Notes: a model not told the origin generated them from the sequence alone. A stretch of DNA of 64,000 nt from Escherichia coli (GCF_036507355.1 NZ_AP027877.1); one strand, 5' to 3'; numbered from the stretch's first letter, positions 4,651 to 62,243 are shown. Program-made: numbers and translations.

Positions 4651-5687
4651 CGTGCTGCCGCGTTGTAATATTCGTCAGTGTCCGGGGTCATCAGTGCCTG
4701 CTCCAGACGCTGCTGTTGTTCGTTATCCCCTGCCAGCACGGCAGTTTGCTGCGGATTTAACCCCAGTTTGCGAAACAGTTGCAGGTCTTTATCTTCTTCC
4801 GGATTCGGCGTAGTCAGCAGTTTGCAGCCGTAGAAAATCGAGTTTGCGCCAGCCATAAAGCACATTGCCTGTGTCTGTTCATTCATCTGCTCACGTCCGG
4901 CAGAAAGGCGTACGTAAGAGGTCGGCATCATGATCCGCGCTACGGCAATGGTGCGAATAAAATCAAAGGCATCGACATCATCGTTATCCGCCAGCGGCGT
5001 GCCTTTCACCTTCACCAGCATGTTGATTGGTACGCTTTCCGGCGGCGTCGGCAGGTTTGCCAGTTGCAGCAATAATCCGGCGCGATCTTTTACCGTTTCG
5101 CCTAAGCCAACAATGCCACCAGAACAGACTTTGATCCCGGCATCGCGCACTTTTTCCAGCGTATCGAGGCGTTCCTGATAAGTGCGGGTGGTGATGATAT
5201 TGCCGTAAAACTCCGGCGAGGTGTCGAGGTTGTGGTTGTAGTAATCCAGCCCGGCGTTCGCGAGGCGCTGCGCCTGAGATTCACTCAACGTGCCCAGCGT
5301 CATACACGCCTCCAGCCCCATCGCTTTTACCCCCTGCACCATCTGCTCCAGGTACGGCATATCGCGTTCGTGGGGATTCTTCCACGCCGCGCCCATGCAA
5401 AAACGCGTCGATCCCGCCGCTTTCGCTTTGCGCGCCGACTCCAGCACCTGTTCAACTTCCATCAACCGCTCGGCTTCCAGCCCGGTTTTATAGCGCGAGC
5501 TTTGCGGGCAATATTTGCAATCTTCCGGGCAAGCACCGGTTTTAATCGACAGTAACGTGCTGACCTGCACCTGACGAGGATCGAAATGCTGGCGATGCAC
5601 CTGCTGCGCTTCAAACAGCAGATCCAGCAACGGTTTTTCAAATAATTCTGTGACTTGCGACAATGTCCAGCGTGGGCGGTGAGCCAT
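4647..5687 (-). CDS. bioB: Biotin synthase (radical SAM)
   Basis: 346 aa with [10 protein letters not shown] radical-SAM cysteine motif; divergent from bioA. Confidence 0.96.
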
Positions 5688-10319: not shown

Positions 10320-10434
<115 letters not shown>

Positions 10435-10435
10435 G

Positions 10436-11729
<1,294 letters not shown>

Positions 11730-12809: not shown

Positions 12810-12873
12810 TGAGGTAGCCTGAGTTTAACGGACACTCCTTCCTGAAATAGAATGGCATCAGAAGGAGCTAATA

Positions 12874-13176
12874 ATGAGCAGAAAAACCCAACGTTACTCT
12901 AAAGAGTTCAAAGCCGAAGCTGTCAGAACGGTTCTTGAAAATCAACTTTCGATCAGTGAAGGCGCTTCCCGATTATCTCTTCCTGAAGGCACTTTAGGAC
13001 AATGGGTTACCGCCGCCAGAAAAGGGCTCGGTACTCCTGGTTCCCGCACGGTGGCTGAACTGGAATCTGAAATTCTGCAACTGCGTAAGGCGTTAAATGA
13101 AGCTCGCCTTGAGCGAGATATATTAAAAAAAGCAACAGCGTATTTTGCACAGGAGTCGCTGAAAAATACGCGTTAA
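12874..13176 (+). CDS. IS3-family transposase OrfA (HTH)
   Basis: 100 aa MSRKTQRYSKEFKAEAVRTV... with leucine-zipper-like C-terminus. Confidence 0.85.
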   Translation: MSRKTQRYSKEFKAEAVRTVLENQLSISEGASRLSLPEGTLGQWVTAARKGLGTPGSRTVAELESEILQLRKALNEARLERDILKKATAYFAQESLKNTR

Positions 13177-13211
13177 TCGAACAATGGCGACAACAATTTC
13201 CCATTGAAGCG

Positions 13212-14030
13212 ATGTGTCAGGTATTTGGTGTATCCAGGAGCGGTTATTACAACTGGGTACAGCATGAACCCTCAGACAGAAAACAAAGTGATGAGCGGCT
13301 AAAACTGGAGATTAAGGTGGCACATATCCGCACTCGCGAAACATATGGAACCCGGCGGCTCCAGACGGAGCTGGCAGAGAATGGCATCATCGTTGGTCGT
13401 GACCGACTGGCACGTCTTCGTAAGGAGCTAAGGCTACGCTGTAAGCAGAAACGCAAGTTCAGAGCGACTACGAACTCGAACCACAATCTGCCAGTTGCGC
13501 CAAATCTGCTGAACCAGACGTTCGCTCCTACAGCACCAAATCAGGTCTGGGTGGCGGACCTGACGTATGTTGCCACACAGGAGGGATGGTTGTACCTCGC
13601 TGGCATCAAAGATGTTTATACGTGCGAAATTGTCGGCTACGCCATGGGAGAGCGCATGACAAAAGAGCTGACAGGTAAAGCCCTGTTTATGGCGCTCAGG
13701 AGCCAGCGCCCACCTGCCGGGCTAATCCACCACTCTGATCGAGGTTCACAGTACTGCGCATACGATTACCGGGTCATACAGGAGCAGTTTGGTCTGAAAA
13801 CATCAATGTCGCGTAAAGGTAACTGTTACGACAACGCTCCGATGGAAAGCTTCTGGGGAACGCTGAAAAATGAGAGCCTGAGCCACTATCGTTTTAATAA
13901 CCGGGATGAAGCCATCTCAGTAATACGGGAATACATTGAGATTTTCTACAATCGTCAGCGTCGTCACTCTCGTCTGGGGAATATCTCCCCGGCAGCCTTC
14001 AGGGAAAAATATCATCAGATGGCTGCTTAA
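13212..14030 (+). CDS. IS3-family transposase OrfB (DDE integrase core)
   Basis: 272 aa with rve-type integrase core (...HHSDRGSQY...); would be expressed as an OrfAB fusion by -1 frameshift. Confidence 0.85.
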
Positions 14031-14073
14031 AAAAAGAACAAATGGTAGTGTCCGCTATTGCCAGTACACCTCA

Positions 14074-36686: not shown

Positions 36687-37087
36687 CTTACCATCTCGTT
36701 TTACAGGCTTAACGTTAAAACCGACATAAGCGTCATATTCGCTGTTATCGGTGTAATTTGTTTTATATACTAAACAAGATAGTCGAATGGTGGGGAAAAG
36801 TCACTCGAATTACGCCTAATGTGCAGGATGCGTCATTTTACGCCTAATTCCACCGACATAGAGTTGCTTGCACAGTAAGCTCTGACTATGTCATCAGGTT
36901 TACAAAGTTAAATTGAGGGATGCCTGAATAGCAAAAAAGCGTCTTTAGGGCGCTTTTTTACATTGGTGGGTCGTGCAGGATGACTCGCTTCGCTCGCCCT
37001 TCGGGCCGTCGCCGCGAGCGGCTCCGTTGTTTCGCTGCGCTCAACTCGAACCTGCTGCAGGTTCGAATCTTTGAATATCTCAGATAG

Positions 37088-37116
37088 CAAAAAAGCGCCT
37101 TTAGGGCGCTTTTTTA
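37088..37116 (-). terminator. Rho-independent terminator after the last tRNA-Lys
   Basis: aaaaaagcgcc-ttta-gggcgctttttt hairpin flanked by A/T runs; a second near-identical copy lies at about 36930-36960. Confidence 0.7.
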
Positions 37117-37119
37117 CAT

Positions 37120-37195
37120 TGGTGGGTCGTGCAGGATTCGAACCTGCGACCAATTGATTAAAAGTCAACTGCTCTACCAACTGAGCTAACGACCC
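37120..37195 (-). tRNA. lysQ: tRNA-Lys (UUU)
   Basis: Exact reverse complement of GGGTCGTTAGCTCAGTTGGTAGAGCAGTTGACTTTTAATC...CCA; 76 nt. Confidence 0.93.
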
Positions 37196-37228
37196 CTTGC
37201 GGGATTATGCTGCTTTAATCATTCAGGA

Positions 37229-37304
37229 TGGTGGGTCGTGCAGGATTCGAACCTGCGACCAATTGATTAAAAGTCAACTGCTCTACCAACTGAGCTAACG
37301 ACCC
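37229..37304 (-). tRNA. lysZ: tRNA-Lys (UUU)
   Basis: 76-nt copy identical to the other tRNA-Lys genes. Confidence 0.93.
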
Positions 37305-37450
37305 ATACGGGTGTTACCTGAAAGATTTCTACTCGGAACCAATCTTTAAAATTGGTGGGTCGTGCAGGATGACTCGCTTCGCTCGCCCTACGGGCCGTTG
37401 CTGGCGCAACGTTATCCTTCACGCTTAACATCTGAGTTTGATGTTAAAAT

Positions 37451-37526
37451 TGGTGGGTCGTGCAGGATTCGAACCTGCGACCAATTGATTAAAAGTCAAC
37501 TGCTCTACCAACTGAGCTAACGACCC
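37451..37526 (-). tRNA. lysY: tRNA-Lys (UUU)
   Basis: 76-nt copy identical to the other tRNA-Lys genes. Confidence 0.93.
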
Positions 37527-37529
37527 GAG

Positions 37530-37605
37530 TGGTGGGTGATGACGGGATCGAACCGCCGACCCCCTCCTTGTAAGGGAGGTGCTCTCCCAGCTGAGCTAAT
37601 CACCC
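37530..37605 (-). tRNA. valZ: tRNA-Val (UAC)
   Basis: Reverse complement of GGGTGATTAGCTCAGCTGGGAGAGCACCTCCCTTACAAGGAGG...CCA. Confidence 0.93.
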
Positions 37606-37656
37606 GATACTGCGCTGGATACTACAAACTACTTCCACCGAACCCACCGTAATTAG

Positions 37657-37732
37657 TGGTGGGTCGTGCAGGATTCGAACCTGCGACCAATTGATTAAAA
37701 GTCAACTGCTCTACCAACTGAGCTAACGACCC
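37657..37732 (-). tRNA. lysW: tRNA-Lys (UUU)
   Basis: 76-nt copy identical to the other tRNA-Lys genes. Confidence 0.93.
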
Positions 37733-37734
37733 GG

Positions 37735-37810
37735 TGGTGGGTGATGACGGGATCGAACCGCCGACCCCCTCCTTGTAAGGGAGGTGCTCTCCCAGCTGAG
37801 CTAATCACCC
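37735..37810 (-). tRNA. valT: tRNA-Val (UAC)
   Basis: 76-nt tRNA-Val copy. Confidence 0.93.
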
Positions 37811-37845
37811 GATACTACGCTGGATACTACAACTAACTAGGTTAG

Positions 37846-37921
37846 TGGTGGGTCGTGCAGGATTCGAACCTGCGACCAATTGATTAAAAGTCAACTGCTC
37901 TACCAACTGAGCTAACGACCC
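37846..37921 (-). tRNA. lysT: tRNA-Lys (UUU)
   Basis: 76-nt tRNA-Lys copy, first gene of the operon. Confidence 0.93.
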
Positions 37922-38085
37922 ACTTTTTCGTTGCTTTCGGTTTGTTTGATATCCCGTGGCAACGGCGGCATATATTACTGATTTCAGACTTGAGCGCAAC
38001 AAAAATTTCGATGTAGATCACTCAACTGCTTATGATTCGCACGACACGACCAGAAATAATGCGACTTCTGGTCGTGTGTTATGCA

Positions 38086-47017: not shown

Positions 47018-47355
47018 CATGACTCCTTGCTCATCGCATGAAGACTCCGAGAGTGAACCCCGTTAGAAAGGGTCACACGCATGCCCCAATACAAAATTAT
47101 TTGCTCGCCTCTATCGTTGCCATTTCATCAAAAGAGGAAAAGACAATGATAAAAAAAGTTACAAATATGTTAATGAATAAACCAAATTGATCCCGTAATT
47201 ATATTACGCCGCAAAATCCTTACAATAAACAGGTTTTTATTGAGCAAATTTGCATTTTTCGACAGTGATCAATTTATAGCGAAATTGTCACGATCTCACC
47301 AATTTGATCTACGACAATTTATCGTGTTTTGCAGAATTTTTTCAAGAATTAAAAA

Positions 47356-47369
47356 TTGATTTATATCAA
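47356..47369. promoter_or_regulatory. FNR-type site in the cydA upstream region
   Basis: TTGAT-ttat-ATCAA, a perfect match to TTGAT-N4-ATCAA, in the long AT-rich cydA control region. Confidence 0.6.
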
Positions 47370-47823
47370 AACCAATCAAATATGTTAATTATGTATAAAC
47401 CATAGATCATTGGTGATTTTATTGTTAATTTATTGTGAAATATTTATGCAACACAATTATTACAATGAAAAGGTATAGATAAAAAACCAGTATTTTATTT
47501 AACAGAACCGCCTTATCCACTTTTTATAATACCAATTGATTAGAGTAGCCAATTTGTTGCTATTTTACATAACATATTTTTATCAAAGTTAATTGATTGT
47601 TACCTTTATGAGCACCGACCGTAAGCCCGTTATGTTATTGTTTCATTAGTAATAATCACTTAAATGTATCGATGAAACAGGTATGACTTACCGGGAGTGA
47701 TTGTTTCTGAGTGAACAGAGGCCACTTTCGCCTGATAAATGAAAAATGAGCGATTTTTGCAAGTTAGTTTTTCTATAGCCGAGTACGCTCAGCGCCTCGC
47801 TTGATTACAATGAGGTTGCTGCT

Positions 47824-48768
47824 ATGAGTCCTGATAATATCGGTTCGGCTGTCAATCGCTTCTCAGGTTGGCCATCTAATGATTCTCTAAAAACAGATAA
47901 AGAATCAATGACATCACCCGTGACTGTGCAGGTAATAAAGATGATTGCCGCCATCCTTGACCCACATCGGATAGTCGTTGGAATCGATACACTTTATACA
48001 ACGCAGCGCGAAACATTTACCTCAGAGAGTCAACAGCTCATTGAATCAGCATTGCAAACACTTCATGTGATGAATTTAAATAATCTGGAAACAAATCGCG
48101 ATGAAGAAGGTCACTATCTGGCTTTTGAATATAACGTTGACACCTCTGACAGAATAACCGTTTCTGCTTATAATGAAAAAAAGCCTGGCTGCTATGGCCA
48201 ATGTCTTGTAATACAGGATGACGAAACAGACTTATTTAACCTGATAAAAATTAAAATTTTCGAAGCCAGGCATAATTATGTCGCTCAATTGATGAGCGAT
48301 CCGGAATTTATGTTCAAATTCAGTTATAGCGCTCAACAAAATAGATTAGAACCTCATCTTCTGGTTCCCGCTTATTTCCCTCTAAAAACAAACGAACCGG
48401 TTACGCAAGAGGATGTACTGTTACTTTATCGTTTCTTTAAAATGAATGATGATTTTAATAAATTAACATCAGATGAATACATGAGTATCCTGACACCTCT
48501 GATGAAGTGTGAGCGTAGCGTCCACGACAACAACAGGTATGTGACGGGCAAAGATACCCTTCTTCTGGACTATCCTCCTTCTGGTAACCAGATACATTTC
48601 CATGTTTTCCCTGACGAATCAGCAACACTAGTCCTTTATTTTTCAAACAATGACCTTGAATGTTTCGTCTTTGAAAGAGATATTCCTAGCCAGTATCGCT
48701 TTTTCAAAATGTTTACCAATCTGGCACTGGTTATAGATCAGTTAACCGAAGCCAATAAAATACTTTAA
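47824..48768 (+). CDS. Hypothetical protein, AT-rich, no recognisable domain
   Basis: 314-aa uninterrupted ORF with visibly lower GC than flanking core genes; absent from the K-12 gene order at this locus. Confidence 0.55.
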   Translation: MSPDNIGSAVNRFSGWPSNDSLKTDKESMTSPVTVQVIKMIAAILDPHRIVVGIDTLYTTQRETFTSESQQLIESALQTLHVMNLNNLETNRDEEGHYLAFEYNVDTSDRITVSAYNEKKPGCYGQCLVIQDDETDLFNLIKIKIFEARHNYVAQLMSDPEFMFKFSYSAQQNRLEPHLLVPAYFPLKTNEPVTQEDVLLLYRFFKMNDDFNKLTSDEYMSILTPLMKCERSVHDNNRYVTGKDTLLLDYPPSGNQIHFHVFPDESATLVLYFSNNDLECFVFERDIPSQYRFFKMFTNLALVIDQLTEANKIL

Positions 48769-48848
48769 TTTTCTATATATCCCTATGGCTAATATTGCTA
48801 AACAATGCCTGGGGATTAATTTTTATTACTCACGGAAAGATTTAAATA

Positions 48849-49271
48849 ATGATACCATCTCAGATCTCTTTCAATACCCTTCCAGTCAATGCAACATACG
48901 CTTCAGAGACAACAGTTGACACACAAAAATTCTCTGACATCCTCTACTCAGCGGGGTGTTCCCTAAAGGATATGGCTTATCTGAGCAGATGTCTGGCATC
49001 AATACACCCGACTATCGCCAAAAACATTTATGAAACAGAAAATCTCAGCGATCAAAAATTACTGCATATTGATTGCCGTAGTACAAATGAAATCAAGATA
49101 AATATCTTTTTTGGTCAGCAAAGAGAAGGGTTAATTGAAATTAGTTCTGACACAGTTATTTTTTCGATACTGTCTTCATTGATTGACTCCGCCATTTCTA
49201 AATTTCAACACCAAAACCCGGTTAACGGTTTAGTTAATCCTGAAATATTGTATGAGGATTATACTGATTAA
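48849..49271 (+). CDS. Hypothetical protein, AT-rich
   Basis: 140-aa ORF immediately downstream of and co-oriented with the 314-aa ORF; plausible RBS (ggaaag) upstream. Confidence 0.45.
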   Translation: MIPSQISFNTLPVNATYASETTVDTQKFSDILYSAGCSLKDMAYLSRCLASIHPTIAKNIYETENLSDQKLLHIDCRSTNEIKINIFFGQQREGLIEISSDTVIFSILSSLIDSAISKFQHQNPVNGLVNPEILYEDYTD

Positions 49272-49818
49272 ATCCACCCTGTCGCGAAAAATGGCCTGCG
49301 TTATTGCCAGACGTAATAAAACCTTTGATTAACGTTACTCATACTGGTAGCACCTTCATGTACCTCTCTTTTTTACGAAAAATCAAAAGAGCTAACTAAG
49401 GTCATAATTCGCATGAATCATTAACCATTTGTTATTTTCAACATTATTTTTACATTAAGCAGAGATGAATTGCAGTGAAATTCGACTTAAATCTTATGAA
49501 ATGCATTTACTCATGGCTAAAACCACGTCACAAAAATGCAAATTAGAAGTAGATCACAATTATCTCAATACATTAAATCAAGTTAATTTTAAAAATTTAA
49601 CATTCATGACATTAGTTGACATAACACACTGAATTAACATGGAAATTTAAAAACACACTTTAAACAATCATTTCCCGAAAGACATTTTGAAAATAGATCA
49701 ATTGCAACATTACGGTCAGATAAAGACACTCCTGTGATATTAAACCTGTGCCGTTATGAACGGCCATAAATACGACGTGTGTAACTTATTTTACTCTCTG
49801 TCTTACAAAGGATTACCC

Positions 49819-50268
49819 ATGAAGAAAGCAACACTTGTGATTGGCGTTATTGGCGCGGACTGCCATGCAGTAGGCAATAAAGTTCTGGACCGCGTTTTTA
49901 GCAACCACGACTTCAGAGTCATTAATCTGGGCGTAATGGTCAGCCAGGACGAATATATTGATGCTGCCATTGAAACTGGCGCTGACGCGATTGTCGTCTC
50001 CTCTATCTATGGGCATGGCGATATCGACTGTCTGGGCATGCGCGAACGCTGCATCGAGCGTGGACTGGGGGACATCCTGCTCTATGTGGGCGGTAACCTG
50101 GTGGTCGGAAAACATGACTTCGCTGACGTGGAAACCAAATTCAAAGAGATGGGATTTGATCGCGTCTTTGCCCCAAGTCATGACTTAGAAGATGTTTGTC
50201 AGCTGATGGCCCACGATATCAACCAACGTCATGACATTGATACTCGTATTCTTGAAGAGGCTATCTGA
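49819..50268 (+). CDS. glmS: Glutamate mutase sigma subunit (B12-binding)
   Basis: [22 protein letters not shown]... with the DxHxxG cobalamin-binding motif; about 149 aa; RBS aaagga. Confidence 0.85.
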
Positions 50269-51656
50269 TGCAAATCGTCTCTGTCGATATTGGATCGACG
50301 TGGACCAAAGCAGCCCTCTTCACCCGGGAGGGGGACGCGTTAACGTTGGTTAACCACGTACTGACCCCAACCACCACCCATCATCTGGCGAAGGGGTTTT
50401 TCTCCAGCCTGAACCAAGTGTTAAACGTAGATAATGCCCTCCCCCTGTTAAACAGCGGTGAGGTTGCATTGAAGTATTCCTCCTCTGCCAAAGGTGGGCT
50501 GGCGGTTGCCGCAATGGGATTGGTGCCTTCTATCACCCTGGAAACCGCGAAAGTAACCGCTCACTCTGCGGGTGCTAAAATTGCGCAATATTACGCCTAC
50601 AAGCTGAACCGCCGTGATATCCAGGCACTGGAAGAAACGCAGCCCGATATTCTCTTGTTCACCGGCGGCACCGACGGCGGAGAAGAAAGCTACGGACTGA
50701 ATAACGCCCGTGTGCTGGCAGAATCCAAACTCGACTGCGCCATTATTTATGCCGGAAACCGGGATATTCAGGACGAGGTGCAGGAGCTCCTCGGGCATAA
50801 AGACCTGACCATCGTCGACAATGTTCTGCCCGATCTTGACCATCCGAACCCTTTAGCCGCACGCCAGGCTATTTGCGACATATTCCTTAAACGCATCGTT
50901 AAAGGGAAAGGGCTGGATGTCATTGTTGATAAAACAGGCGAAGAACCAATGCCGACACCATGGACGGTCTTTGAACTGGTCAAGGCAATCAGTAACGTCG
51001 ATCACAGCTGGAAAGAGTTCATGCTGATCGACATGGGCGGCGCAACCACCGATGTTTATTCCGTCTGTGCCAACACGCTCTCGCCCGACACCGTTTTACA
51101 CGGCGTACCGGAACCCTTCGTAAAACGGACGGTGGAAGGCGATCTGGGAATGCGCGTCTCGGCAGTGGTGGTTGGTGAAAGTGCGAAAGAGTTAGTCAAT
51201 GTGAATTTTGCTCAGCAACCCGCACAGCTGGACGCTTTTTATCATTACCTCCGTCATCTAGTCGCTCATCCCGACTACTTACCCGCAAATGCAGAAGAGA
51301 AATATTTCGATACCGTCCTGGCCGGACTGTGTGTGGGTTATGCCACCGAAAGACATGCGGGCACCAAAAAAGAGGTCTGCACCTGCGTCGGCAATGTCGA
51401 TTTACAGATGGGACGTGACCTGACAACCGTGCGTAAAGTCGTCGGATCCGGCGGATGGCTCTCGCGTGCCAGTCAGTTCGATATGCATCACTGGTTGAAA
51501 TACCGCGAGTTAAACGACGACGGTAAACGCATTCTCTTACCGACCGAATTTGAATATTACCGCGATTCCCGGGGGCTATTACCACTGCTGGCAAACGTCG
51601 CCAGAGTCGATCCGCTGGCCGCCGCGCGCACCAGTATTCAATGCTTAACCCTATAA
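50268..51656 (+). CDS. glmL: Glutamate mutase accessory protein GlmL/MutL-like
   Basis: 462 aa between the S and E subunit genes, the size and position expected for GlmL. Confidence 0.75.
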   Translation: MQIVSVDIGSTWTKAALFTREGDALTLVNHVLTPTTTHHLAKGFFSSLNQVLNVDNALPLLNSGEVALKYSSSAKGGLAVAAMGLVPSITLETAKVTAHSAGAKIAQYYAYKLNRRDIQALEETQPDILLFTGGTDGGEESYGLNNARVLAESKLDCAIIYAGNRDIQDEVQELLGHKDLTIVDNVLPDLDHPNPLAARQAICDIFLKRIVKGKGLDVIVDKTGEEPMPTPWTVFELVKAISNVDHSWKEFMLIDMGGATTDVYSVCANTLSPDTVLHGVPEPFVKRTVEGDLGMRVSAVVVGESAKELVNVNFAQQPAQLDAFYHYLRHLVAHPDYLPANAEEKYFDTVLAGLCVGYATERHAGTKKEVCTCVGNVDLQMGRDLTTVRKVVGSGGWLSRASQFDMHHWLKYRELNDDGKRILLPTEFEYYRDSRGLLPLLANVARVDPLAAARTSIQCLTL

Positions 51657-51674
51657 CAATTAAGGCTGCAATCA

Positions 51675-53120
51675 ATGGAACTTCGAAATAAGAAATTAAC
51701 CCATGACGAATTCATGACCGAGCGGCAACAGGTACTGAAAACCTGGGAAACCGGCAAGGATGTTGAAAACTTTGAAGATGGCGTTAAATACCAACAAACC
51801 ATCCCTGAGCATAAACGCTTCTCTCTTGCGCTGCTGAAAGCAGACAAGGAAGGTAAAACCCTTAGCCAACCGCGCGCAGGTGTGGCGCTGATGGACGAAC
51901 ACATCGAACTGCTGAAAACACTACAAGAAGAGTGCGATCTGCTGCCAAGCACCATCGATGCATATACCCGTCTGAATCGGTACGAAGAAGCGGCTGTAGG
52001 GATTAAAAAATCCATCGAAGCCGGAACCTCTAAACTGAACGGTTTACCGGTAGTTAACCATGGTGTCGCAGCTTGCCGTCGCCTCACCGAAACCCTGCAA
52101 AAACCGCTACAGATCCGCCACGGCACGCCAGATGCGCGTCTGCTGGCTGAAATCTCAATGGCCAGCGGCTTTACCAGTTATGAAGGCGGTGGCATTTCCT
52201 ACAACATTCCGTATGCCAAACGCGTAACGCTGGAAAAATCGATCCGCGACTGGCAGTACTGCGACCGTTTAATGGGGATGTATGAAGAACACGGGATCCG
52301 CATCAACCGCGAACCGTTTGGCCCACTAACGGGTACGCTGATCCCGCCGTTTATCTCGCATTCTATCGCGATAATCGAAGGCTTGCTGGCACTGGAACAG
52401 GGTGTGAAATCTATCACCGTTGGTTATGGCCAGGTCGGCAGCCTGACGCAGGATGTTGCGGCGATCCAGTCTCTGCGTGAACTTGCACACGAATATTTTC
52501 AGAGCTATGGCTATACCGACTATGAATTGAGTACCGTGTTTCACCAGTGGATGGGCGGCTTTCCGGAAGACGAATCGAAAGCGTTCGCTATTATCTCCTG
52601 GGGTGCAGCCGTCGCGGGGATGTCTGGTGCCACCAAAGTCATCACCAAAAGTCCGCACGAAGCCTGGGGTATCCCGACTGCCGCTGCCAACATTCAGGGG
52701 CTGAAAGCCTCCCGCCAGATGCTCAACATGGTCAATGAGCAGAAATTCCCGCCGTGCCCTGCGGTTGAACTGGAAATTGAACTGATTAAGAGCGAGGTTC
52801 GCGCTGTACTGAATAAAGTGTTCGAACTGGGTAATGGTGATATTGCGCGCGGTACGGTGCTGGCATTTGAAGCGGGCGTACTGGATGTGCCATTTGCGCC
52901 AGCCGCCTGCAACGCGGGCAATATTCTTCCGGTCCGTGACAACACCGGCGCGATACGCGTACTGGAAGCCGGAGCCGTTCCATTGCCAAAAGATATTCTC
53001 GATCTCCACCACGATTACGTTGCGGAACGCGCACGCTTTGAAGGACGCCAACCGACATTCCAGATGGTTGTAGATGACATCAATGCTGTATCCCACAGTA
53101 AATTAATAGGAAGACCATAA
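51675..53120 (+). CDS. glmE: Glutamate mutase epsilon (catalytic) subunit
   Basis: 481 aa, the size and position expected for GlmE/MutE. Confidence 0.8.
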   Translation: MELRNKKLTHDEFMTERQQVLKTWETGKDVENFEDGVKYQQTIPEHKRFSLALLKADKEGKTLSQPRAGVALMDEHIELLKTLQEECDLLPSTIDAYTRLNRYEEAAVGIKKSIEAGTSKLNGLPVVNHGVAACRRLTETLQKPLQIRHGTPDARLLAEISMASGFTSYEGGGISYNIPYAKRVTLEKSIRDWQYCDRLMGMYEEHGIRINREPFGPLTGTLIPPFISHSIAIIEGLLALEQGVKSITVGYGQVGSLTQDVAAIQSLRELAHEYFQSYGYTDYELSTVFHQWMGGFPEDESKAFAIISWGAAVAGMSGATKVITKSPHEAWGIPTAAANIQGLKASRQMLNMVNEQKFPPCPAVELEIELIKSEVRAVLNKVFELGNGDIARGTVLAFEAGVLDVPFAPAACNAGNILPVRDNTGAIRVLEAGAVPLPKDILDLHHDYVAERARFEGRQPTFQMVVDDINAVSHSKLIGRP

Positions 53121-54361
53121 TGAAAATAAAACAGGCTCTGTTCACCGCTGGCTACTCCTCATTCTATTTCGATGACCAGCAGGCGATAAAAAACGGAGCG
53201 GGTCATGACGGCTTTTTTTATACCGGGGAGCCGGTAACACAGGGGTTTAACGCCGTTCGTCAGGCCGGGGAGTGCGTATCGGTACAGTTGATTCTGGAAA
53301 ACGGCGCGGTCGCTGTAGGTGACTGTGCTGCCGTACAGTATTCCGGGGCAGGTGGTCGCGACCCACTGTTCCTCGCAGAGCTCTTTATTCCGTTCCTCAA
53401 CGACCATATCAAGCCATTACTGGTAGGCCGCGATGTGGATGCTTTCCTGCCGAATGCCCGTTTCTTCGACAAATTGCGTATTGACGGCAACTTGCTGCAT
53501 ACCGCCGTGCGCTACGGATTATCACAGGCGCTGCTTGATGCTACCGCGCTGGCAACCGGCCGTCTGAAAACTGAAGTGGTCTGTGATGAATGGCAGTTGC
53601 CACGCGTGGCGGAATCCATTCCATTATTTGGTCAGAGCGGCGACGATCGATATATCGCCGTCGATAAGATGATCCTTAAGGGCATCGACGTGCTGCCCCA
53701 TGCGCTGATTAATAACGTCGAAGAGAAGCTGGGCTTTAAAGGTGAAAAACTGCGCGAATATGTCCGCTGGTTGTCGGATCGCATTCTAAGCAAGCGCACC
53801 AGCGCACGCTACCACCCAACCTTGCACATCGATGTATACGGCACTATCGGTCTGATCTTCGATATGGATCCGCTTCGCTGTGCGCAATACATCGCCAGCC
53901 TGGAAAAAGAAGCGCAAGGCCTGCCGCTCTACATTGAAGGGCCGGTCGATGCCGGTAACAAGCCCGATCAAATTCGCCTGCTGACCGCGATTACCAAAGA
54001 GCTGACGCGCCTCGGTTCCGGCGTGAAAATTGTGGCCGATGAATGGTGTAACACCTACCAGGATGTTGTTGATTTCACTGATGCCGCCAGTTGTCACATG
54101 GTGCAAATCAAAACCCCGGATCTGGGCAGTATTCACAACATCGTCGATGCGGTTCTTTACTGCAACAGCCACAGCATGGAAGCGTACCAGGGCGGCACCT
54201 GCAATGAAACTGATGTCAGTGCCCGCACCTGTGTCCACGTCGCCCTTGCCGCTCGCCCTATGCGTATGCTGGTAAAGCCAGGGATGGGCTTTGACGAAGG
54301 CCTCGATATCGTCTTCAACGAAATGAATCGTACTATCGCGCTGTTGCAGGCTAAGGATTAA
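53120..54361 (+). CDS. 3-methylaspartate ammonia-lyase (enolase superfamily)
   Basis: 413 aa, directly downstream of glmE. Confidence 0.82.
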   Translation: MKIKQALFTAGYSSFYFDDQQAIKNGAGHDGFFYTGEPVTQGFNAVRQAGECVSVQLILENGAVAVGDCAAVQYSGAGGRDPLFLAELFIPFLNDHIKPLLVGRDVDAFLPNARFFDKLRIDGNLLHTAVRYGLSQALLDATALATGRLKTEVVCDEWQLPRVAESIPLFGQSGDDRYIAVDKMILKGIDVLPHALINNVEEKLGFKGEKLREYVRWLSDRILSKRTSARYHPTLHIDVYGTIGLIFDMDPLRCAQYIASLEKEAQGLPLYIEGPVDAGNKPDQIRLLTAITKELTRLGSGVKIVADEWCNTYQDVVDFTDAASCHMVQIKTPDLGSIHNIVDAVLYCNSHSMEAYQGGTCNETDVSARTCVHVALAARPMRMLVKPGMGFDEGLDIVFNEMNRTIALLQAKD

Positions 54362-54364
54362 CAA

Positions 54365-55734
54365 ATGGCTCGTTCTTTTAAAGTCTTATCGCCAACAGCA
54401 ATCCTCGGGTATGGATTCCCGGAAGAGAGCTTCCGCAAAGCGATGGCAGAATCACCCGATCTGATCGCCGTTGATGCAGGCTCTTCCGATCCAGGCCCCC
54501 ACTACCTCGGGCAGGCAAACCGTTTACCGATCGCGCAGGGGTCAAGCGCGATCTGCGCTATATGATCACCGCAGGCGTGCAAAATAATATACCGGTGGTG
54601 ATCGGAACGGCCGGCGGTTCTGGTGCCGCTCCACACCTGGAGTGGTGCCGAGAAATAATTCATGAGATTGCCCAGGAAGAGCACCTCTCGTTCTCGATGG
54701 CGTTGATCCCGGCAGACGTTGACAAAGCCATCGTCCACCAGGCGCTGGATAACGGCAAAATCACGGCGCTGGATTTTGTCCCGCCGTTAACCCACGACGC
54801 GATTGACGAAAGTACGTATATCGTCGCGCAAATGGGCATCGAACCCTTCCAGCGGGCGCTAAAAGAAGGCGCGCAAGTGGTGCTGGGTGGGCGCGCTTAC
54901 GACCCGGCCTGCTTTGCTGCGCTACCGATCATGCAAGGCTTTGATGAAGGTCTGGCGCTGCATTGTGGGAAAATCCTTGAATGCGCGGCAATCGCCGCAA
55001 CGCCCGGCTCAGGCTCTGACTGTGCGATGGGCATCATTGATGACAACGGCTTTACGCTGAAGACATTTAATCCGAAGCGTAAATTTACCGAAACGTCAGC
55101 AGCTGCACACACACTGTATGAGAAATCCGATCCCTACTTCCTGCCAGGACCTGGCGGCGTGTTGAACCTGAAAGGCTGCACATTTAAAGCAGTCAATGAC
55201 GGCGAAGTCTACGTCAGCGGTTCTAAGCATGAAGAAACGCCGTATGCCCTGAAACTGGAAGGTGCACGACGGGTGGGCTTCCGCTGTCTGACCATCGCCG
55301 GAACGCGCGACCCGATTATGATCGCCGGGATCGATAAACTCATCGATGAAGTCAAAACCAGCGTTTCGCGTAACCTGTCGCTCGACGATGACAGCATTCG
55401 CATCAATTTCCACCTGTACGGCAAAAACGGGGTGATGGGAGACCATGAACCGATGCAAACTGCCGGGCATGAGCTGGGGATTGTTCTTGATGTAGTTGCA
55501 CCGACCCAGGAAATTGCCAATAGCGTTTGCTCGCTGGTGCGCTCTACCATGCTGCACTACGGCTATGAAAACCGCATCGCTACCGCAGGTAATCTGGCGT
55601 TCCCGTTCTCCCCTTCTGATATCCAGGGCGGGCCGGTATACGAATTTTCCATATATCACCTGATTGAAGCCAACGACGCTCTGCGTTTTGATTTCCATAT
55701 TGAACAGGTGACGCCAGAAGGAGTTCAGGCATGA
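54365..55734 (+). pseudogene. AtuA-like DUF1446 protein with an apparent +1 frameshift near 54515-54565
   Basis: Two consecutive ORFs (54365..54565 and 54562..55734) in different frames together make one ~455-aa DUF1446-type protein. Confidence 0.55.
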
Positions 55735-56048
55735 AACAGTCAATTGTCTCACTGGCGCAAGTCATTCGTTCGAAAAATGCCGGACCTTACGAACTGGTTT
55801 TAGATATTTTATTTAAAACGAAAGAAAACTATGAGCGAGTTAAATCATCAGGGCAATTAACCCCAGAACTGATTGCGCGCTTATATCATGTTGAACCTGA
55901 CTTTATTCATCGTATTGTCTGGTTTGATCCTTCTAACGCAGTAAAAATCGTCATGCCACGAGATATTATCTCCGGGAATGTAGGTGACAATGATGTCTAT
56001 GGTGCACAGCAACATGCACCTTTATTAAATATGAGTTTCGATTTGTAA
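55731..56048 (+). CDS. DUF4387-family small protein (partner of DUF1446)
   Basis: 105 aa, start overlaps the DUF1446 stop. Confidence 0.6.
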   Translation: MKQSIVSLAQVIRSKNAGPYELVLDILFKTKENYERVKSSGQLTPELIARLYHVEPDFIHRIVWFDPSNAVKIVMPRDIISGNVGDNDVYGAQQHAPLLNMSFDL

Positions 56049-56208
56049 AAATCCGAATACTTTTAGCCAACTGACATCCCGTCACTTATTGCAGTTCAAC
56101 ACTTCAGCTATTTGTAAGGTTGTAATAGCAGGTAGATGCCTGAATCTCTATTCAGGCATCTACTTCTCCTGATTCTGATTTATCGCCGTGCACCTGATGG
56201 AGGAAAAA

Positions 56209-57489
56209 ATGAAGAAAATAAGTTTAACCACGATGATTCTTTTGGCGCTGGTACTTGGAATGATTATCGGCGTAGTGCTCAATAACACTGCTTCACCGGA
56301 AACAGCAAAACTCTATGCGCAAGAAATATCGATATTCACGACGATTTTCTTACGACTGATAAAAATGATTATCGCTCCGTTAGTGGTCTCTACCCTGGTG
56401 GTAGGTATTGCTAAAATGGGCGATGCCAAAGCCCTTGGTCGTATTTTTTCTAAAACACTCTTTTTATTTATTTGCGCCTCATTGCTGTCAATTGCCTTAG
56501 GCTTGATAACGGTAAATTTCTTCATGCCAGGCACAGGAATTAATTTTGTTGCACACGGTGCCGAAACCACAGGAGTGGTCGCGTCAGAACCCTTTACGCT
56601 AAAAGTATTTATTTCGCATGCTTTCCCCACCAGCATTGTCGATGCCATGGCGCACAATGAAATTTTGCAAATCGTGGTGTTCTCAATTTTCCTCGGCTGT
56701 AGCCTGACGGCGATTGGCGAGAAAGGCAGCGCCATCGTTCACGCCTTAGATTCGCTGGCACATGCCATGTTAAAGCTCACTGGCTACGTCATGCTCTTCG
56801 CTCCCCTGACCGTATTCGCCGCTATTTCAGCATTGATTGCTGAACGAGGACTGGCAGTTATGGTGAGCGCCGGGATCTTTATGGGTGAATTTTATTTCAC
56901 CATGTTATTACTTTGGGTGCTGCTTATCGGTCTGGCCATCGTTTATGTCGGCCCCTGCATCAGACGCCTGACCCGCGCCCTTTCGGAACCCGCCCTGCTG
57001 GCATTTACCACATCCAGTTCTGAAGCGGCTTTTCCGGGAACGCTTGAAAAACTGGAGCAATTTGGCGTTTCCCCCAAAATTGCCAGCTTTGTCTTACCCA
57101 TTGGCTACTCATTTAATCTCGTTGGATCAATGGCCTACTGCTCCTTCGCCACAGTTTTCATCGCCCAGGCCTGCAATATCCATTTATCCATCGGTGAGCA
57201 AATCACCATGCTGTTGATCCTGATGTTGACCTCGAAAGGAATGGCTGGCGTACCACGCGCCTCAATGGTGGTTATCGCCGCCACGCTCAACCAGTTCAAT
57301 ATTCCGGAAGCGGGGCTGATCTTGCTGATGGGCGTTGATCCGTTCCTTGATATGGGGCGTTCCGCGACAAACGTCATGAGCAACGCAATGGGCGCTGCGA
57401 TGGTGAGTCGGTGGGAAGGCGAACATTTCGGCGAGGGCTGTCGGGGTAAAGCATTAAAACCCAATGAATCGAACGTTGCTCTGCCCTGA
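56209..57489 (+). CDS. Dicarboxylate/amino acid:cation symporter (DAACS/GltP-DctA family)
   Basis: About 427-aa polytopic membrane protein; ATG at 56209 preceded by RBS ggagg. Confidence 0.8.
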   Translation: MKKISLTTMILLALVLGMIIGVVLNNTASPETAKLYAQEISIFTTIFLRLIKMIIAPLVVSTLVVGIAKMGDAKALGRIFSKTLFLFICASLLSIALGLITVNFFMPGTGINFVAHGAETTGVVASEPFTLKVFISHAFPTSIVDAMAHNEILQIVVFSIFLGCSLTAIGEKGSAIVHALDSLAHAMLKLTGYVMLFAPLTVFAAISALIAERGLAVMVSAGIFMGEFYFTMLLLWVLLIGLAIVYVGPCIRRLTRALSEPALLAFTTSSSEAAFPGTLEKLEQFGVSPKIASFVLPIGYSFNLVGSMAYCSFATVFIAQACNIHLSIGEQITMLLILMLTSKGMAGVPRASMVVIAATLNQFNIPEAGLILLMGVDPFLDMGRSATNVMSNAMGAAMVSRWEGEHFGEGCRGKALKPNESNVALP

Positions 57490-57596
57490 GGGGGATCTTA
57501 AGCAATCAGAAGCCAATGACTACGCATTTTTATAAGCCGGATCATGAAGTTAGACGGCAATTAAGTAACACTAACGTTTAAGGTGAAAAGTGAAAT

Positions 57597-59249
57597 ATGT
57601 CCAAACCATTTATCTGGCAAGAACCGTTTCTACAAAATAAAGACGGTACAGAATATACATTAATTAGCGATCAACATATTACAGTAACGGAATTAGACGG
57701 CGAAGAAGTGATAAAAATCGCTCCTGAAGCATTAACGCTGCTTGCCCGGCAGGCATTTTATGAAGCCTCTTTTTTCTTACGTTCCGCTCATTTGCAACAG
57801 GTCGCCAGCATTCTTAACGATCAGCAGGCCAGCAGTAATGATAAATACGTTGCGTTGCAGTTATTACGTAATGCTGAAGTCTCAGCAAAAGGGGTATTAC
57901 CCAACTGTCAGGATACCGGCACCGCAACTATTGTTGCCAGTAAAGGGCAACAGATATGGACCGGAAGTAACGACGCCGAAGCTTTAAGTAAAGGCATTTA
58001 CAGTACTTTCCAGGAAAATAATCTGCGCTTTTCACAAAATGCGCCGCTGGATATGTATACCGAAGTCAATACGCAAACCAATCTCCCGGCGCAGATTGAT
58101 ATCAGCGCTGTCGCTGGTGATGAGTACCATTTTCTCTGTGTTAATAAAGGGGGCGGCTCCGCCAATAAAGCCGCGCTTTATCAGGAAACCAAATCCTTAT
58201 TGCAACCAGAAAAACTGACCGCATTTTTAATCGAAAAAATGAAATCGCTGGGCACCGCTGCCTGCCCGCCTTACCACATCGCCTTTGCCGTCGGAGGGCT
58301 TTCAGCCGATCAAACCTTAAAAGTTGCCAAGCTGGCCTCAACGAAATATTACGACAATTTGCCCACCAGCGGAAACGAGCAGGGACAAGCATTCCGTGAT
58401 ATTGAGCTGGAAAAAGCGTTGCTCGAGGCCAGTCAGCAATTTGGTATTGGTGCACAATTTGGGGGGAAATATTTCGCTCATGATATTCGCGTCATTCGTC
58501 TGCCGCGTCACGGTGGCTCTTGCCCGATAGCTATGGCGCTCTCCTGTTCTGCCGATCGCAATATCAAAGCAAAAATTAACAAACACGGTATCTGGCTAGA
58601 AAAACTCGAACACAATCCGGGGCAATATATTCCAGCCTCATTGCGGGAAGAAAATCACGCGCAACATGTACAACTGGATCTAAACCGTCCGTTGCGTGAC
58701 GTGATGCTGGATCTCGCCAGATTACCGGTAGGTACCCGCGTGTCGTTAAGTGGTCCCATCGTAGTGGCGCGCGATATCGCCCACGCCAAAATAAAAGCGC
58801 GGCTGGATAGCGGCGAATCGATGCCGGAGTACCTGAAGCATCATATTGTCTATTACGCTGGCCCGGCGAAAACACCGGAGAACATGGCCTGCGGTTCACT
58901 GGGTCCAACCACGGGCGGTCGAATGGATGGTTATGTCGATACCTTCCAGGCGGCCGGCGGCAGTCTGGTGATGTTATCGAAAGGTAACCGCAGCCAGCAG
59001 GTCACCGATGCCTGTCACAAACATGGCGGCTTCAATCTGGGAAGTATTGGCGGTGCAGCTGCGTTACTGGCGCAAGAATATGTCAAAAGTCTGCGTTGCC
59101 TGGAATACCCGGAGCTGGGTATGGAAGCGGTGTGGATGATGGAAGTGGAAAATCTGCCCGCATTCATCCTGGTAGATGATAAAGGCAATAATTTCTTTAG
59201 TCAGTTTGAGCAGCAACACCGCTGCGCCAGTTGCCCTGCGGGACATTAA
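57597..59249 (+). CDS. fumD: Class I (Fe-S) fumarate hydratase paralog, likely mesaconase (FumD-type)
   Basis: 550 aa with class I fumarase features; embedded in the methylaspartate cluster. Confidence 0.8.
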
Positions 59250-59258
59250 GGAAAATGA

Positions 59259-59861
59259 ATGGAAGCGCGAATTTCAACTGAACGGCATGTGCAGCGCCAA
59301 CAGAAATTGAAGGAACAGGTCGATACGCGCGTCGCGGCGGCGATAGAGAAAAAAGGGATCTTGATTGTTTTCACCGGCAACGGCAAAGGGAAATCCACTG
59401 CCGCGTTTGGTACTGTGACGCGCGCGGTGGGTCATGGCAAAACGGTGGGGGTTGCGCAGTACATCAAGGGGCAATGGGACAACGGCGAATACAACCTTCT
59501 CCAGCCGCTGGGGGTTGAGTTTCATATTATGGGAACCGGTTTTACCTGGGAGACACAGAACCGGCAAGCGGATATCGACGCGGCGAAAGAGGTCTGGTCG
59601 GAAAGCAAACGGATGCTGGCTGACAAGCGTTACGACTTAGTGGTGCTTGATGAGCTGACCTATATGCTGGCTTACCATTATTTGGATACCGAAGAAGTGA
59701 TCGCTTCTCTGCAAAACCGCCCGGCACAACAAAGTGTCATTGTCACCGGACGCGGTTGCCACAGTCAGATATTAAAAATGGCGGATACGGTAAGCGAAAT
59801 CCGCCCCGTCAAACATGCTTTTGATAACGGCATTCAGGCCCAGCCGGGTATAGACTGGTAA
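59259..59861 (+). CDS. Cob(I)alamin adenosyltransferase (CobA/BtuR-type paralog)
   Basis: 200 aa with P-loop VFTGNGKGKSTAAFG and strong similarity to BtuR. Confidence 0.85.
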   Translation: MEARISTERHVQRQQKLKEQVDTRVAAAIEKKGILIVFTGNGKGKSTAAFGTVTRAVGHGKTVGVAQYIKGQWDNGEYNLLQPLGVEFHIMGTGFTWETQNRQADIDAAKEVWSESKRMLADKRYDLVVLDELTYMLAYHYLDTEEVIASLQNRPAQQSVIVTGRGCHSQILKMADTVSEIRPVKHAFDNGIQAQPGIDW

Positions 59862-59894
59862 TAACTGCGCCTGGCATCCCGCCAGGCGCAGGTT

Positions 59895-60557
59895 TTACAT
59901 CTCCTGCGGTACGACCGATTTCGCCAGCAACCATTCACGAAATTGCTGCAAGTGCGGTGAGTCAGACTTCTCTTCCTGCCACGTCATAATAAAACGATTA
60001 CCGGTACGAATAGGCACATCACAGGGAATCACCATATCGCCACTATCCAAATCATGTTGAATAGCGAAACGTGGTAACAGCGCCACGCCGAGATTAGAGC
60101 GCACGGCGGCAATCAGCATTGAAAGCAAATCGAAACGTGGTCCGTTATTGACCAACGGACTGCTAACGCCAGATAAAGCAAACCACTCTTCCCAGCCAGT
60201 AATACGGGTGCTTTGATGCAGAAGCGGTAACTCAGTAAGCAGTTCTGCCACTGACAGCTTTTGATCGGACATTGCAAGCAAACTGCCGCTGCATACCGGC
60301 AAAATCTCCTCATCAAAGAGATATTCTACTTCCGCCCAGGGCGCGCAAAAATTTTCGCGCATAATGACAGCATCGTACTCCCGATTAAGAAAATCGCCGT
60401 TATTAGCTAAAGAATGAATATTAACAATAATATCGGGATGTAACTTTGTGAATTCATGTAAATTTGGGATCAACCAGTGGGTACTAAAAGTAGGATTAAC
60501 GGCAAGTTCAATAACCTGAACCGTAGGCTGCCAGGTCATAATGGTATTGGTATCGCG
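59895..60557 (-). pseudogene. LysR-family regulator, C-terminal part (interrupted by IS1)
   Basis: LysR substrate-binding domain; frame is continuous with the N-terminal HTH fragment once IS1 and one copy of the 9-bp duplication are removed. Confidence 0.8.
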
Positions 60558-60612
60558 GGTGATGCTGCCAACTTACTGATTTAGTGTATGATGGTGTTTT
60601 TGAGGTGCTCCA

Positions 60613-60888
60613 GTGGCTTCTGTTTCTATCAGCTGTCCCTCCTGTTCAGCTACTGACGGGGTGGTGCGTAACGGCAAAAGCACCGCCGGACATCAGCGCT
60701 ATCTCTGCTCTCACTGCCGTAAAACATGGCAACTGCAGTTCACTTACACCGCTTCTCAACCCGGTACGCACCAGAAAATCATTGATATGGCCATGAATGG
60801 CGTTGGATGCCGGGCAACAGCCCGCATTATGGGCGTTGGCCTCAACACGATTTTACGTCACTTAAAAAACTCAGGCCGCAGTCGGTAA
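60613..60888 (+). CDS. insA: IS1 InsA
   Basis: [41 protein letters not shown]...; slippery A6C site (ttaaaaaactc) near 60868 for the InsAB' fusion. Confidence 0.95.
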
Positions 60889-61310
60889 CCTCGCGCATAC
60901 AGCCGGGCAGTGACGTCATCGTCTGCGCGGAAATGGACGAACAGTGGGGCTATGTCGGGGCTAAATCGCGCCAGCGCTGGCTGTTTTACGCGTATGACAG
61001 GCTCCGGAAGACGGTTGTTGCGCACGTATTCGGTGAACGCACGATGGCGACGCTGGGGCGTCTTATGAGCCTGCTGTCACCCTTTGACGTGGTGATATGG
61101 ATGACGGATGGCTGGCCGCTGTATGAATCCCGCCTGAAGGGAAAGCTGCACGTAATCAGCAAGCGATATACGCAGCGAATTGAGCGGCATAACCTGAATC
61201 TGAGGCAGCACCTGGCACGGCTGGGACGGAAGTCGCTGTCGTTCTCAAAATCGGTGGAGCTGCATGACAAAGTCATCGGGCATTATCTGAACATAAAACA
61301 CTATCAATAA
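60807..61310 (+). CDS. insB: IS1 InsB (transposase C-terminal frame)
   Basis: 167-aa frame overlapping insA in -1 frame; ...[44 protein letters not shown]... Confidence 0.93.
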
Positions 61311-61326
61311 GTTGGAGTCATTACCG

Positions 61327-61577
61327 GTATCGCGTTCCAGCTTATTTAATGTTTCTTTTACTATCCCCAGGTAATACTTCCCAGCATCATTAAGAAAAAT
61401 GCGTTTTTTAGAGTGTGAAAATAACGGAGTACGTAAAAATTCCTCCAGCGCACTTACTTGTCTGAATACTGCACTTTGGGTTAACGCTAACTCCTCTGCC
61501 GCTCTGGTATAACTTTCATGACGTGCGACGACCTCAAAAGTCACCAGCAGTTCCGTTTTAGGTATTTTCCCTCGCAT
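61327..61577 (-). pseudogene. LysR-family regulator, N-terminal HTH part (interrupted by IS1)
   Basis: ...FEVVARHESYTRAAEELALTQSAVFRQVSALEEFL... helix-turn-helix; the frame runs into IS1. Confidence 0.8.
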
Positions 61578-62142
61578 AATGCCGTCCCTTAAAAATAGTT
61601 TAAACCATCAAAAATACATTACTTATTACGAAGTAATGGTAACCAAAGCAGCAATAAATAATTTATAAGAATCATGATTGACATTTATAAACCAGTAAGC
61701 CTGGCGTGACAAATATCTTAATCAGATAATAATAATCCGAAAAGCACAGCGCCTTTCGAATTATCCGGAATCACATTAAGTGAAAATTATTAAATTGATA
61801 TCATTTATCATATCTGTGGATATTATGATAAACAATCAACAAAGATTTTATTTTTGATTTATAGCATATCCCTCTAAGAATTTTTGCGATGCTGCAATAT
61901 CCGGGGTAAAGACCCGATCCTGGCTGACAAATGGCACGACTTGACGAAAAGCGGTGAACATCGCTTTTGTTGATTTACTTAACGCTACGGTCAAACGCTG
62001 GGAAGCCAGTGCATCAGGTAACGATTCGAAATTCGCCGTCGTTCTTATTCGTGGCTTGCGGTCGGTTGCGGCAATCCACAGTGGCTGTGGTCATGCAGTC
62101 AAGCCTGCAGTCAGATTTCGACCGTGGTTAACCGTTTAAGGC

Positions 62143-62169
62143 ATAAAAAAGGCCATCATACGATGGCCA
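62143..62169 (-). terminator. Rho-independent terminator downstream of sucD
   Basis: ggccatcgtatgatggcc hairpin followed by a T-run on the minus strand. Confidence 0.7.
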
Positions 62170-62243
62170 ACCATGTCGAAACCGACAGCCCTTCGCCATT
62201 CCTGTAGAGGGAAGCGGCGAGGGCTATTTCTTATTACAGATAT

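Follow-up and report, generated by a model that had tools for sequence, protein, structure and literature searches.

The two genes at 57597-59861, which encode a mesaconase-type class I fumarase (FumD) and a second corrinoid adenosyltransferase, CobA, very likely form the terminal part of a chromosomal island that has spread horizontally and that, when intact, encodes the whole methylaspartate (or mesaconate) route of glutamate degradation, and this route appears to be incomplete here through decay of the island, not through absence of a citramalate lyase. The initial annotation had recognised both genes, and had concluded that the cluster contains no citramalate lyase and that the pathway looks incomplete in the window. 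The candidate lyase genes, cmlA and cmlB, are located at 54365-56048, directly 3' of the methylaspartate ammonia-lyase gene mal and about 1.5 kb upstream of the fumarase gene. In this strain, the first of them carries a frameshift and the LysR-type regulator gene at the end of the island is split by an insertion sequence.

The window, i.e., the whole 64-kb stretch of DNA that was analysed, is E. coli-type chromosome that runs from uvrB/bio through mod, gal, tol-pal and cydAB to sucDC. The island sits between cydA and sucD, a slot that in K-12 holds mngR-mngA-mngB, and the same island in the same order and at the same cydA-sucD site is found in E. coli MEW and in O157:H7 TR01. Four IS-type insertions are the sole stretches of the window without a counterpart in the annotated strain MEW, and this IS load may point to a Shigella-like lineage or another one rich in IS elements. 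The island begins with two hypothetical ORFs in low-GC DNA for which no match to Pfam, NCBIfam or PADLOC was obtained. These are followed on the plus strand by glmS (49819..50268), encoding the B12-binding subunit S of glutamate (methylaspartate) mutase (149 aa; NF002612, 252 bits; TIGR01501, 246 bits), the start and length of which are as in strain MEW; glmL (50268..51656), encoding a reactivase-like accessory protein of the mutase (462 aa; TIGR01319, 894 bits; NF040745, 510 bits); glmE (51675..53120), encoding the catalytic subunit E (481 aa; TIGR01503, 864 bits); and mal (53120..54361), encoding 3-methylaspartate ammonia-lyase (413 aa; TIGR01502, 542 bits). These four genes are adjacent and intact, and score far over the cut-offs of the NCBIfam equivalog models. 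Next come cmlA (54365..55734, plus strand), the product of which belongs to the AtuA/DUF1446 family and would be subunit A of citramalate lyase, and cmlB (55731..56048, plus strand), encoding the DUF4387 protein that would be subunit B (intact, 105 aa; PF14330, 134 bits). The start of cmlB overlaps the stop of cmlA by 4 nt. Successive genes from glmS to cmlB are spaced by -4 to +18 nt, so that the six of them resemble a single unit with translational coupling.

Downstream of cmlB, the plus strand encodes a dicarboxylate/amino acid:cation symporter of the GltP/DctA family (56209..57489; intact, 426 aa; PF00375, 343 bits), for which both the GltP and the DctA model score under their cut-offs. 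From its gene context, this protein is presumed to be a glutamate importer. It is followed by fumD (57597..59249) and cobA (59259..59861), both on the plus strand, and by a G+C-rich hairpin of 11 pairs, nine of them G-C (59865..59891), likely the terminator that closes the operon, which a consensus scan alone placed between cobA and the convergent lysR gene. The regulator gene lies on the minus strand in two parts, a C-terminal part with the substrate-binding domain (59895..60557) and an N-terminal part with the HTH domain (codons 1-84; 61326..61577), separated by an IS1 element of 768 bp (60558..61325, plus strand). Comparison with MEW indicated that the island genes other than cmlA and lysR are all intact. 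An Rfam scan detected no cobalamin riboswitch in the window and no other regulatory RNA in the island. A promoter consensus scan returned fewer sites than in shuffled sequence and was set aside.

Concerning the fumarase, the initial reading held. FumD is an intact protein of 550 aa that scores 1275.6 bits in an NCBIfam profile search with NF011921 (cut-off 1060), also matches PF05681 and PF05683, and falls below the cut-offs of the FumA and FumB models (920 bits vs a cut-off of 1105 for FumA). Proteins of this kind belong to the iron-sulfur class of fumarate hydratases (class I). FumD of the window is identical to its ortholog from E. coli O157:H7 TR01 at 546/550 positions, with four residues differing. 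The O157:H7 enzyme favours mesaconate over fumarate 2- to 3-fold, with kcat/Km values of 2 x 10^6 and 7.5 x 10^5 M-1 s-1, respectively (PMC4682846). By analogy with this ortholog, FumD of the window would carry mesaconase activity.

The second gene of the interval encodes an intact ATP:co(I)rrinoid adenosyltransferase of the CobA type (200 aa), which matches NF004637 (296 bits), TIGR00708 (246.6 bits vs a cut-off of 167.75) and PF02572 (216 bits) and contains the P-loop GNGKGKS at residues 40-46. The gene is labelled 'cobO' by PGAP. The housekeeping btuR gene, likewise labelled 'cobO', is present in 5,422 of the 5,426 complete E. coli genomes and shares about 69% DNA identity with the island gene. 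At an identity of at least 95%, the island cobA itself was found in 1,122 records, and those among the matches listed have two places each. The island cobA is a second copy beside the housekeeping btuR, as had been proposed. It resembles BtuR/CobA of E. coli and Salmonella in family (PF02572, TIGR00708), length class and P-loop. It differs from E. coli btuR in being a paralog of only about 69% DNA identity that is island-borne and missing in about 79% of E. coli genomes.

The proposal that glutamate mutase activity requires uptake of a corrinoid can also be maintained. GlmS contains the B12-binding DxHxxG motif (DCHAVG, residues 14-19), and on the evidence of synteny with the annotated strain MEW the 64-kb window has no cob, cbi or btu gene besides the island cobA. 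Outside E. coli, many hosts of the island, e.g., Citrobacter, Klebsiella, Salmonella and Yersinia, are known to produce B12. Lawrence and Roth reportedly described E. coli in 1996 as having the corrinoid salvage route only. E. coli contains only salvage genes (cobU, cobS, cobT, cobC and btuR), and the de novo route would need many foreign genes (PMC6249242). The dependence of glutamate mutase on an imported corrinoid is thus supported, on the basis of established knowledge rather than of the window.

The part of the initial annotation that did not stand is the lack of a citramalate lyase. A lyase gene adjacent to the cluster had been named there as an observation that would refute this view, and such genes were found as cmlAB. 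The intact MEW ortholog of the AtuA/DUF1446-family gene matches chain A of the PDB structures 9ERQ/9EVF with an E-value of 8.8e-292, and the DUF4387 protein, which is identical to that of O157:H7 TR01 (105/105), matches chain B with an E-value of 5.2e-57 and 84.6% identity. These structures, released in 2025, were deposited under the names 'Citramalate lyase, subunit A (cmlA)' and 'subunit B (cmlB)'. In Klebsiella michiganensis DSM 25444, mal is followed by a gene whose product is 100% identical to 9ERQ_A, and the gene order of this locus is that of the window. The deposited pair and that of the window are alike in consisting of overlapping genes located directly after mal that encode a 456-aa AtuA/DUF1446 and a 105-aa DUF4387 subunit, with identities of 92% for CmlA (after repair of the frameshift) and 85% for CmlB. 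A two-subunit Cml (cmlAB) of Raoultella planticola, described as a gift of I. Berg, converts citramalate to pyruvate and acetate in vivo (bioRxiv 10.64898/2026.01.16.699985). A literature search for a primary description of CmlAB returned none, only this preprint using the enzyme. On the names of the PDB deposits and the preprint, the AtuA/DUF1446 and DUF4387 genes are identified as those of the CmlAB lyase, and E. coli CmlAB would be expected to cleave citramalate as does the Raoultella/Klebsiella ortholog.

The distribution of these genes points in the same direction. The island is present in 1,122/5,426 complete E. coli genomes, and the cluster had previously been reported in 26.5% of E. 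coli (PMC4682846). A scan for CmlA with one genome per species yielded 61 loci, and in all of them except three short or uninformative contigs (L059, L061 and L067) cmlA lies beside methylaspartate-pathway genes. Those loci of the set that have sufficient flanking sequence all share the order glmS-glmL-glmE-mal-cmlA-cmlB. The 61 loci come from enterobacteria (Escherichia, Citrobacter, Klebsiella, Salmonella arizonae/diarizonae, Enterobacter, Yersinia, Morganella, Hafnia and Budvicia) and from other taxa, i.e., Aromatoleum/Azoarcus, Telmatospirillum, Bacillota MAGs, Desulfotomaculum copahuensis and a Dictyoglomaceae MAG. Given sufficient flanking sequence, cmlAB is thus the invariant partner of glmSLE-mal across several phyla. 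FumD and CobA are the variable parts of these loci: neither occurs within 10 kb in those of Morganella, Hafnia, Budvicia and Aromatoleum. The cmlAB-mal block is closely followed by a two-gene class I fumarase in the Dictyoglomaceae locus and by an N-domain homolog in one Bacillota locus. In D. copahuensis the module is preceded by histidine-to-glutamate genes, which fits a role in glutamate breakdown.

These data also bear on the explanation favoured initially, namely that the cluster lacks a citramalate lyase by design and that citramalate is cleaved by an enzyme encoded elsewhere, e.g., the citrate lyase CitDEF. This was the published working idea until 2015 (PMC4682846). A tblastn search with six K-12 proteins (E <= 1e-3) found no CitCDEFXG-type gene in the window or in the 61 related loci, so that to this extent the initial statement stood, and citDEF occurs outside the region of the window in nearly all complete E. 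coli genomes (5,419-5,421 of 5,426; about 115 kb from sucD in K-12). However, the pair directly after mal matches a solved enzyme named citramalate lyase, and it is cmlAB, and not a nearby CitDEF, that stays constant with glmSLE-mal across phyla. Moreover, extracts of O157:H7 grown on citrate contained 0.48 U/mg of citrate lyase and zero citramalate lyase activity, and conditions for isocitrate and methylisocitrate lyase did not produce citramalate lyase activity in O157:H7 extracts either (PMC4682846). A cluster that by design lacks a lyase and relies on an enzyme encoded elsewhere is therefore scarcely credible and is already contradicted, and an intact island, which has CmlAB, would not need a citrate-lyase-type enzyme from elsewhere.

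In the strain analysed here, however, cmlA is not intact. A 1-bp deletion in cmlA (FRAMESHIFTED), which reduces GGGG to GGG at 54509-54511, shifts the frame after codon 49 and leads to a TGA stop at 54563-54565 after 66 codons, leaving a remaining ORF of 390 aa that starts at 54562. Consequently, cmlA of the window matches 9ERQ_A in two frames, with 91.8% identity over residues 1-49 and 92.4% over residues 50-456. Restoring one G yields the full ORF of 456 aa, identical to 9ERQ_A at 421/456 positions, and cmlA therefore contains no other damage. Each of the 1,122 complete E. coli genomes that possess cmlA has four G at this position, and the frameshift allele occurs in none of them. As the change is a homopolymer contraction, a common type of error on some platforms, it could in principle be a sequencing or assembly error in a gene that is intact in the organism. 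Nevertheless, a homopolymer of only four bases is not long enough to make a systematic error likely, and two further assemblies that stem from different projects (GCA_905398585.1 and GCA_044688185.1) have the same allele, although they are distinct from the window by SNPs and by the absence of the IS1. Both assemblies encode an identical FumD and share 99.96-99.98% identity with the window over 13 kb. Because these two assemblies carry the same deletion, the allele is taken to be real, and an error is highly improbable.

The second lesion of the island affects the regulator. IS1, with transposase matches at 60613-60888 and 60807-61310, is flanked by a 9-bp target duplication, GGTATCGCG, at 60549-60557 and 61326-61334, as read directly from the junctions and terminal repeats. 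The element splits the lysR gene at codon ~82-84, between the HTH and the effector-binding domains. The N- and C-terminal parts correspond to nt 1-252 and nt 244-906, respectively, of the intact 906-nt MEW gene, and the latter has GcvA-like LysR matches. Joining of the two parts without IS1 produces an open frame of 301 aa that is identical to the protein of L003, one of the near-identical assemblies L003-L005, all of which lack the IS1 and have an intact 301-aa regulator. Loss of function of the LysR regulator in this strain can thus be assumed from the split reading frame, and that of CmlA from the frameshift. L003 and L004, the two assemblies that share the cmlA frameshift, carry it in the presence of an intact regulator and the absence of IS1, and since these relatives have the one lesion without the other, the frameshift came first and IS1 later. 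The lysR gene of O157:H7 TR01 contains an internal stop, with a 40-bp IS1-end sequence in place of gene sequence. Kronen and Berg found no conditions in which even an intact O157:H7 island is expressed (PMC4682846). Inactivation of lysR in O157:H7 in general, considered as an explanation of this absent expression, was discarded, as the stop allele of TR01 occurs in only 1/5,426 genomes.

In the proposed model of the intact island, glutamate would be taken up by the GltP-type symporter and converted to (2S,3S)-3-methylaspartate by the adenosylcobalamin-dependent mutase GlmS/GlmE assisted by GlmL. Mal would then remove ammonia to produce mesaconate, which FumD would hydrate to (S)-citramalate, a reaction shown for the O157:H7 ortholog, and CmlAB would cleave citramalate to pyruvate and acetate, as shown for the Raoultella/Klebsiella ortholog. 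The island CobA would convert imported or salvaged corrinoid to the adenosyl form used by the mutase, hosts of the E. coli type being unable to build the corrin ring, and the LysR-type regulator presumably controls expression. Mesaconate and (S)-citramalate are C5-dicarboxylates related to itaconate. Decay of the island would have started with the 1-bp deletion in cmlA, followed by the IS1 insertion that separates the DNA-binding and effector domains of the regulator. Because cmlA is frameshifted and lysR is split by IS1, the pathway probably stops at or before citramalate. The statement that the pathway is incomplete thus probably applies to this genome, the cause being recent decay rather than the design of the cluster.

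A different reading of the same lesions is that the truncated pathway is functional and selected, either because glutamate is converted to mesaconate or (S)-citramalate plus ammonia with excretion of the acid, or because a re-initiated CmlA of 390 aa works with CmlB. The intactness of the other island genes and the persistence of the frameshift allele in at least three near-identical isolates would be consistent with it, as would the ATGA overlap at 54562-54565, in which the stop codon that ends the 66-codon fragment shares bases with an ATG from which re-initiation may yield the truncated protein. However, no more than 3-5 SNPs in 13 kb separate the near-identical isolates, and intact genes at this distance reflect recency and not selection. 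Furthermore, no Shine-Dalgarno sequence precedes the internal ATG at 54562, and the lost N-terminal segment of 66 residues holds about 30 invariant positions, including P10-P19, D37, G39, S40, D42-G49 and K61-L64. The later loss of the regulator to IS1 looks, moreover, like continuing decay. A functional and selected remnant is for these reasons unlikely. That the loss of CmlA with the rest intact leaves a short ammonia-releasing pathway that excretes mesaconate or (S)-citramalate in the gut, or that the split CmlA assembles with CmlB, is very unlikely. The reading by decay is preferred, according to which recent mutation has probably abolished the lyase step in this strain and left the pathway without regulation.

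These observations have consequences for how such genomes are read. The PGAP labels of the two lyase genes, 'acyclic terpene utilization AtuA family protein' and 'DUF4387', are misleading and make the enterobacterial island seem to lack its last enzyme, as it did to the initial annotation and to the 2015 paper. Since the 2025 structures identify the AtuA-family/DUF4387 pair as the lyase, about one fifth of E. coli genomes, O157:H7 included, have all the genes of a B12-dependent route that leads from glutamate to pyruvate and acetate. In the genome analysed here, the island would instead be a recent pseudogene cluster, which is better left out when metabolic capabilities are listed.

The system as such is already known, the cluster since 2015 and the lyase since 2025, and what is new, the decay in this strain, is a minor point. 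The glutamate-fermentation cluster with FumD was described in E. coli O157:H7 and other Enterobacteriaceae by Kronen and Berg (2015, PLoS One), who listed the DUF1446 gene as of 'unknown function' and considered the fate of citramalate unclear (PMC4682846). The island of the window resembles the O157:H7 island in genes, gene order and cydA-sucD site, with cobA and lysR at the distal end, and eight of its proteins share 99-100% identity with those of O157:H7 TR01. It differs in that the copy of the window has a frameshifted DUF1446 gene (cmlA) and an IS1 in lysR. With the classical methylaspartate pathway of Clostridium tetanomorphum and C. tetani, the island has in common the conversion of glutamate to pyruvate, acetate and ammonia, the homologous GlmS/L/E and Mal proteins, and a mesaconase of the class I fumarase family. 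In contrast to the clostridial system, in which citramalate is cleaved by an acyl-carrier complex of the CitDEF type, the island encodes the non-homologous lyase CmlAB and no CitC/X/G, its mesaconase is one fused polypeptide whereas the clostridial enzyme has two subunits, and it includes a dedicated CobA.

The interval between sucD and cydA is occupied by different genes in different E. coli chromosomes. In the window (47021-62243 compared) it holds the glutamate-fermentation island, whereas in the corresponding K-12 segment (L069, 763000-774000) it holds mngR-mngA-mngB, which encode a mannosylglycerate PTS and a mannosidase. The island and mngR-mngA-mngB are alternative occupants of one chromosomal slot. 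Between cydA and glmS lie two hypothetical ORFs of 314 aa (47824-48768) and 140 aa (48849-49271), carried on DNA of 37-43% GC, for which Pfam, NCBIfam and PADLOC gave no matches. Both also adjoin the island in E. coli MEW (the annotated strain used as synteny reference), in O157:H7 TR01 and in the near-identical assemblies, and neither was seen beside the island in the loci compared from other genera.

Several insertions distinguish the window from MEW. Two elements interrupt ybhJ, a gene of the aconitase family: an IS110-family element (10380-11656; transposase at 10485-11465, minus strand) and an IS600-like element of the IS3 family (12810-14071; orfA at 12874-13176 and orfB at 13212-14030). 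Together with the IS1 that splits the LysR regulator gene of the island (60558-61325), these two insertions point to an IS-rich lineage, possibly a Shigella-like one. The bioA-ybhB interval contains an extra 1.27 kb (7126-8398) not present in MEW, in which a gene for TnpB, the RNA-guided endonuclease of the IS200/IS605 family, is broken into three ORF fragments. The sole non-IS stretch of the window without colinear alignment to MEW is the RtT repeat-containing Lys/Val tRNA array at 36900-37950, which comprises seven tRNA genes as compared with the six annotated in MEW.

The LysR regulator gene is also altered in TR01, in which an IS1 terminal repeat substitutes for 40 bp at equal length (L006:14873-14932) and produces an internal stop. 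Since this allele occurs in TR01 alone (one of the 5,426 complete E. coli genomes compared), the change may reflect either an event in that strain or an artefact of assembly.

Apparent damage to the citramalate lyase subunit gene cmlA is present in two draft assemblies of other species. Its spans of 1,370 nt in Yersinia aldovae ATCC 35236 (L065:10001-11370; 11 stops in translation) and 1,369 nt in Citrobacter amalonaticus (L043) entail a broken reading frame, and these copies could be more independent pseudogenes or merely reflect draft-assembly indels. In Desulfotomaculum copahuensis (L066), a sigma-54 activator follows cmlB, and directly upstream of glmS-glmL-glmE-mal-cmlAB are genes for a formiminotransferase (FTCD_N/FTCD), an amidohydrolase and a cyclodeaminase (FTCD_C) (L066:907-4447). 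These are histidine-to-glutamate genes, so histidine may supply the module in this species.
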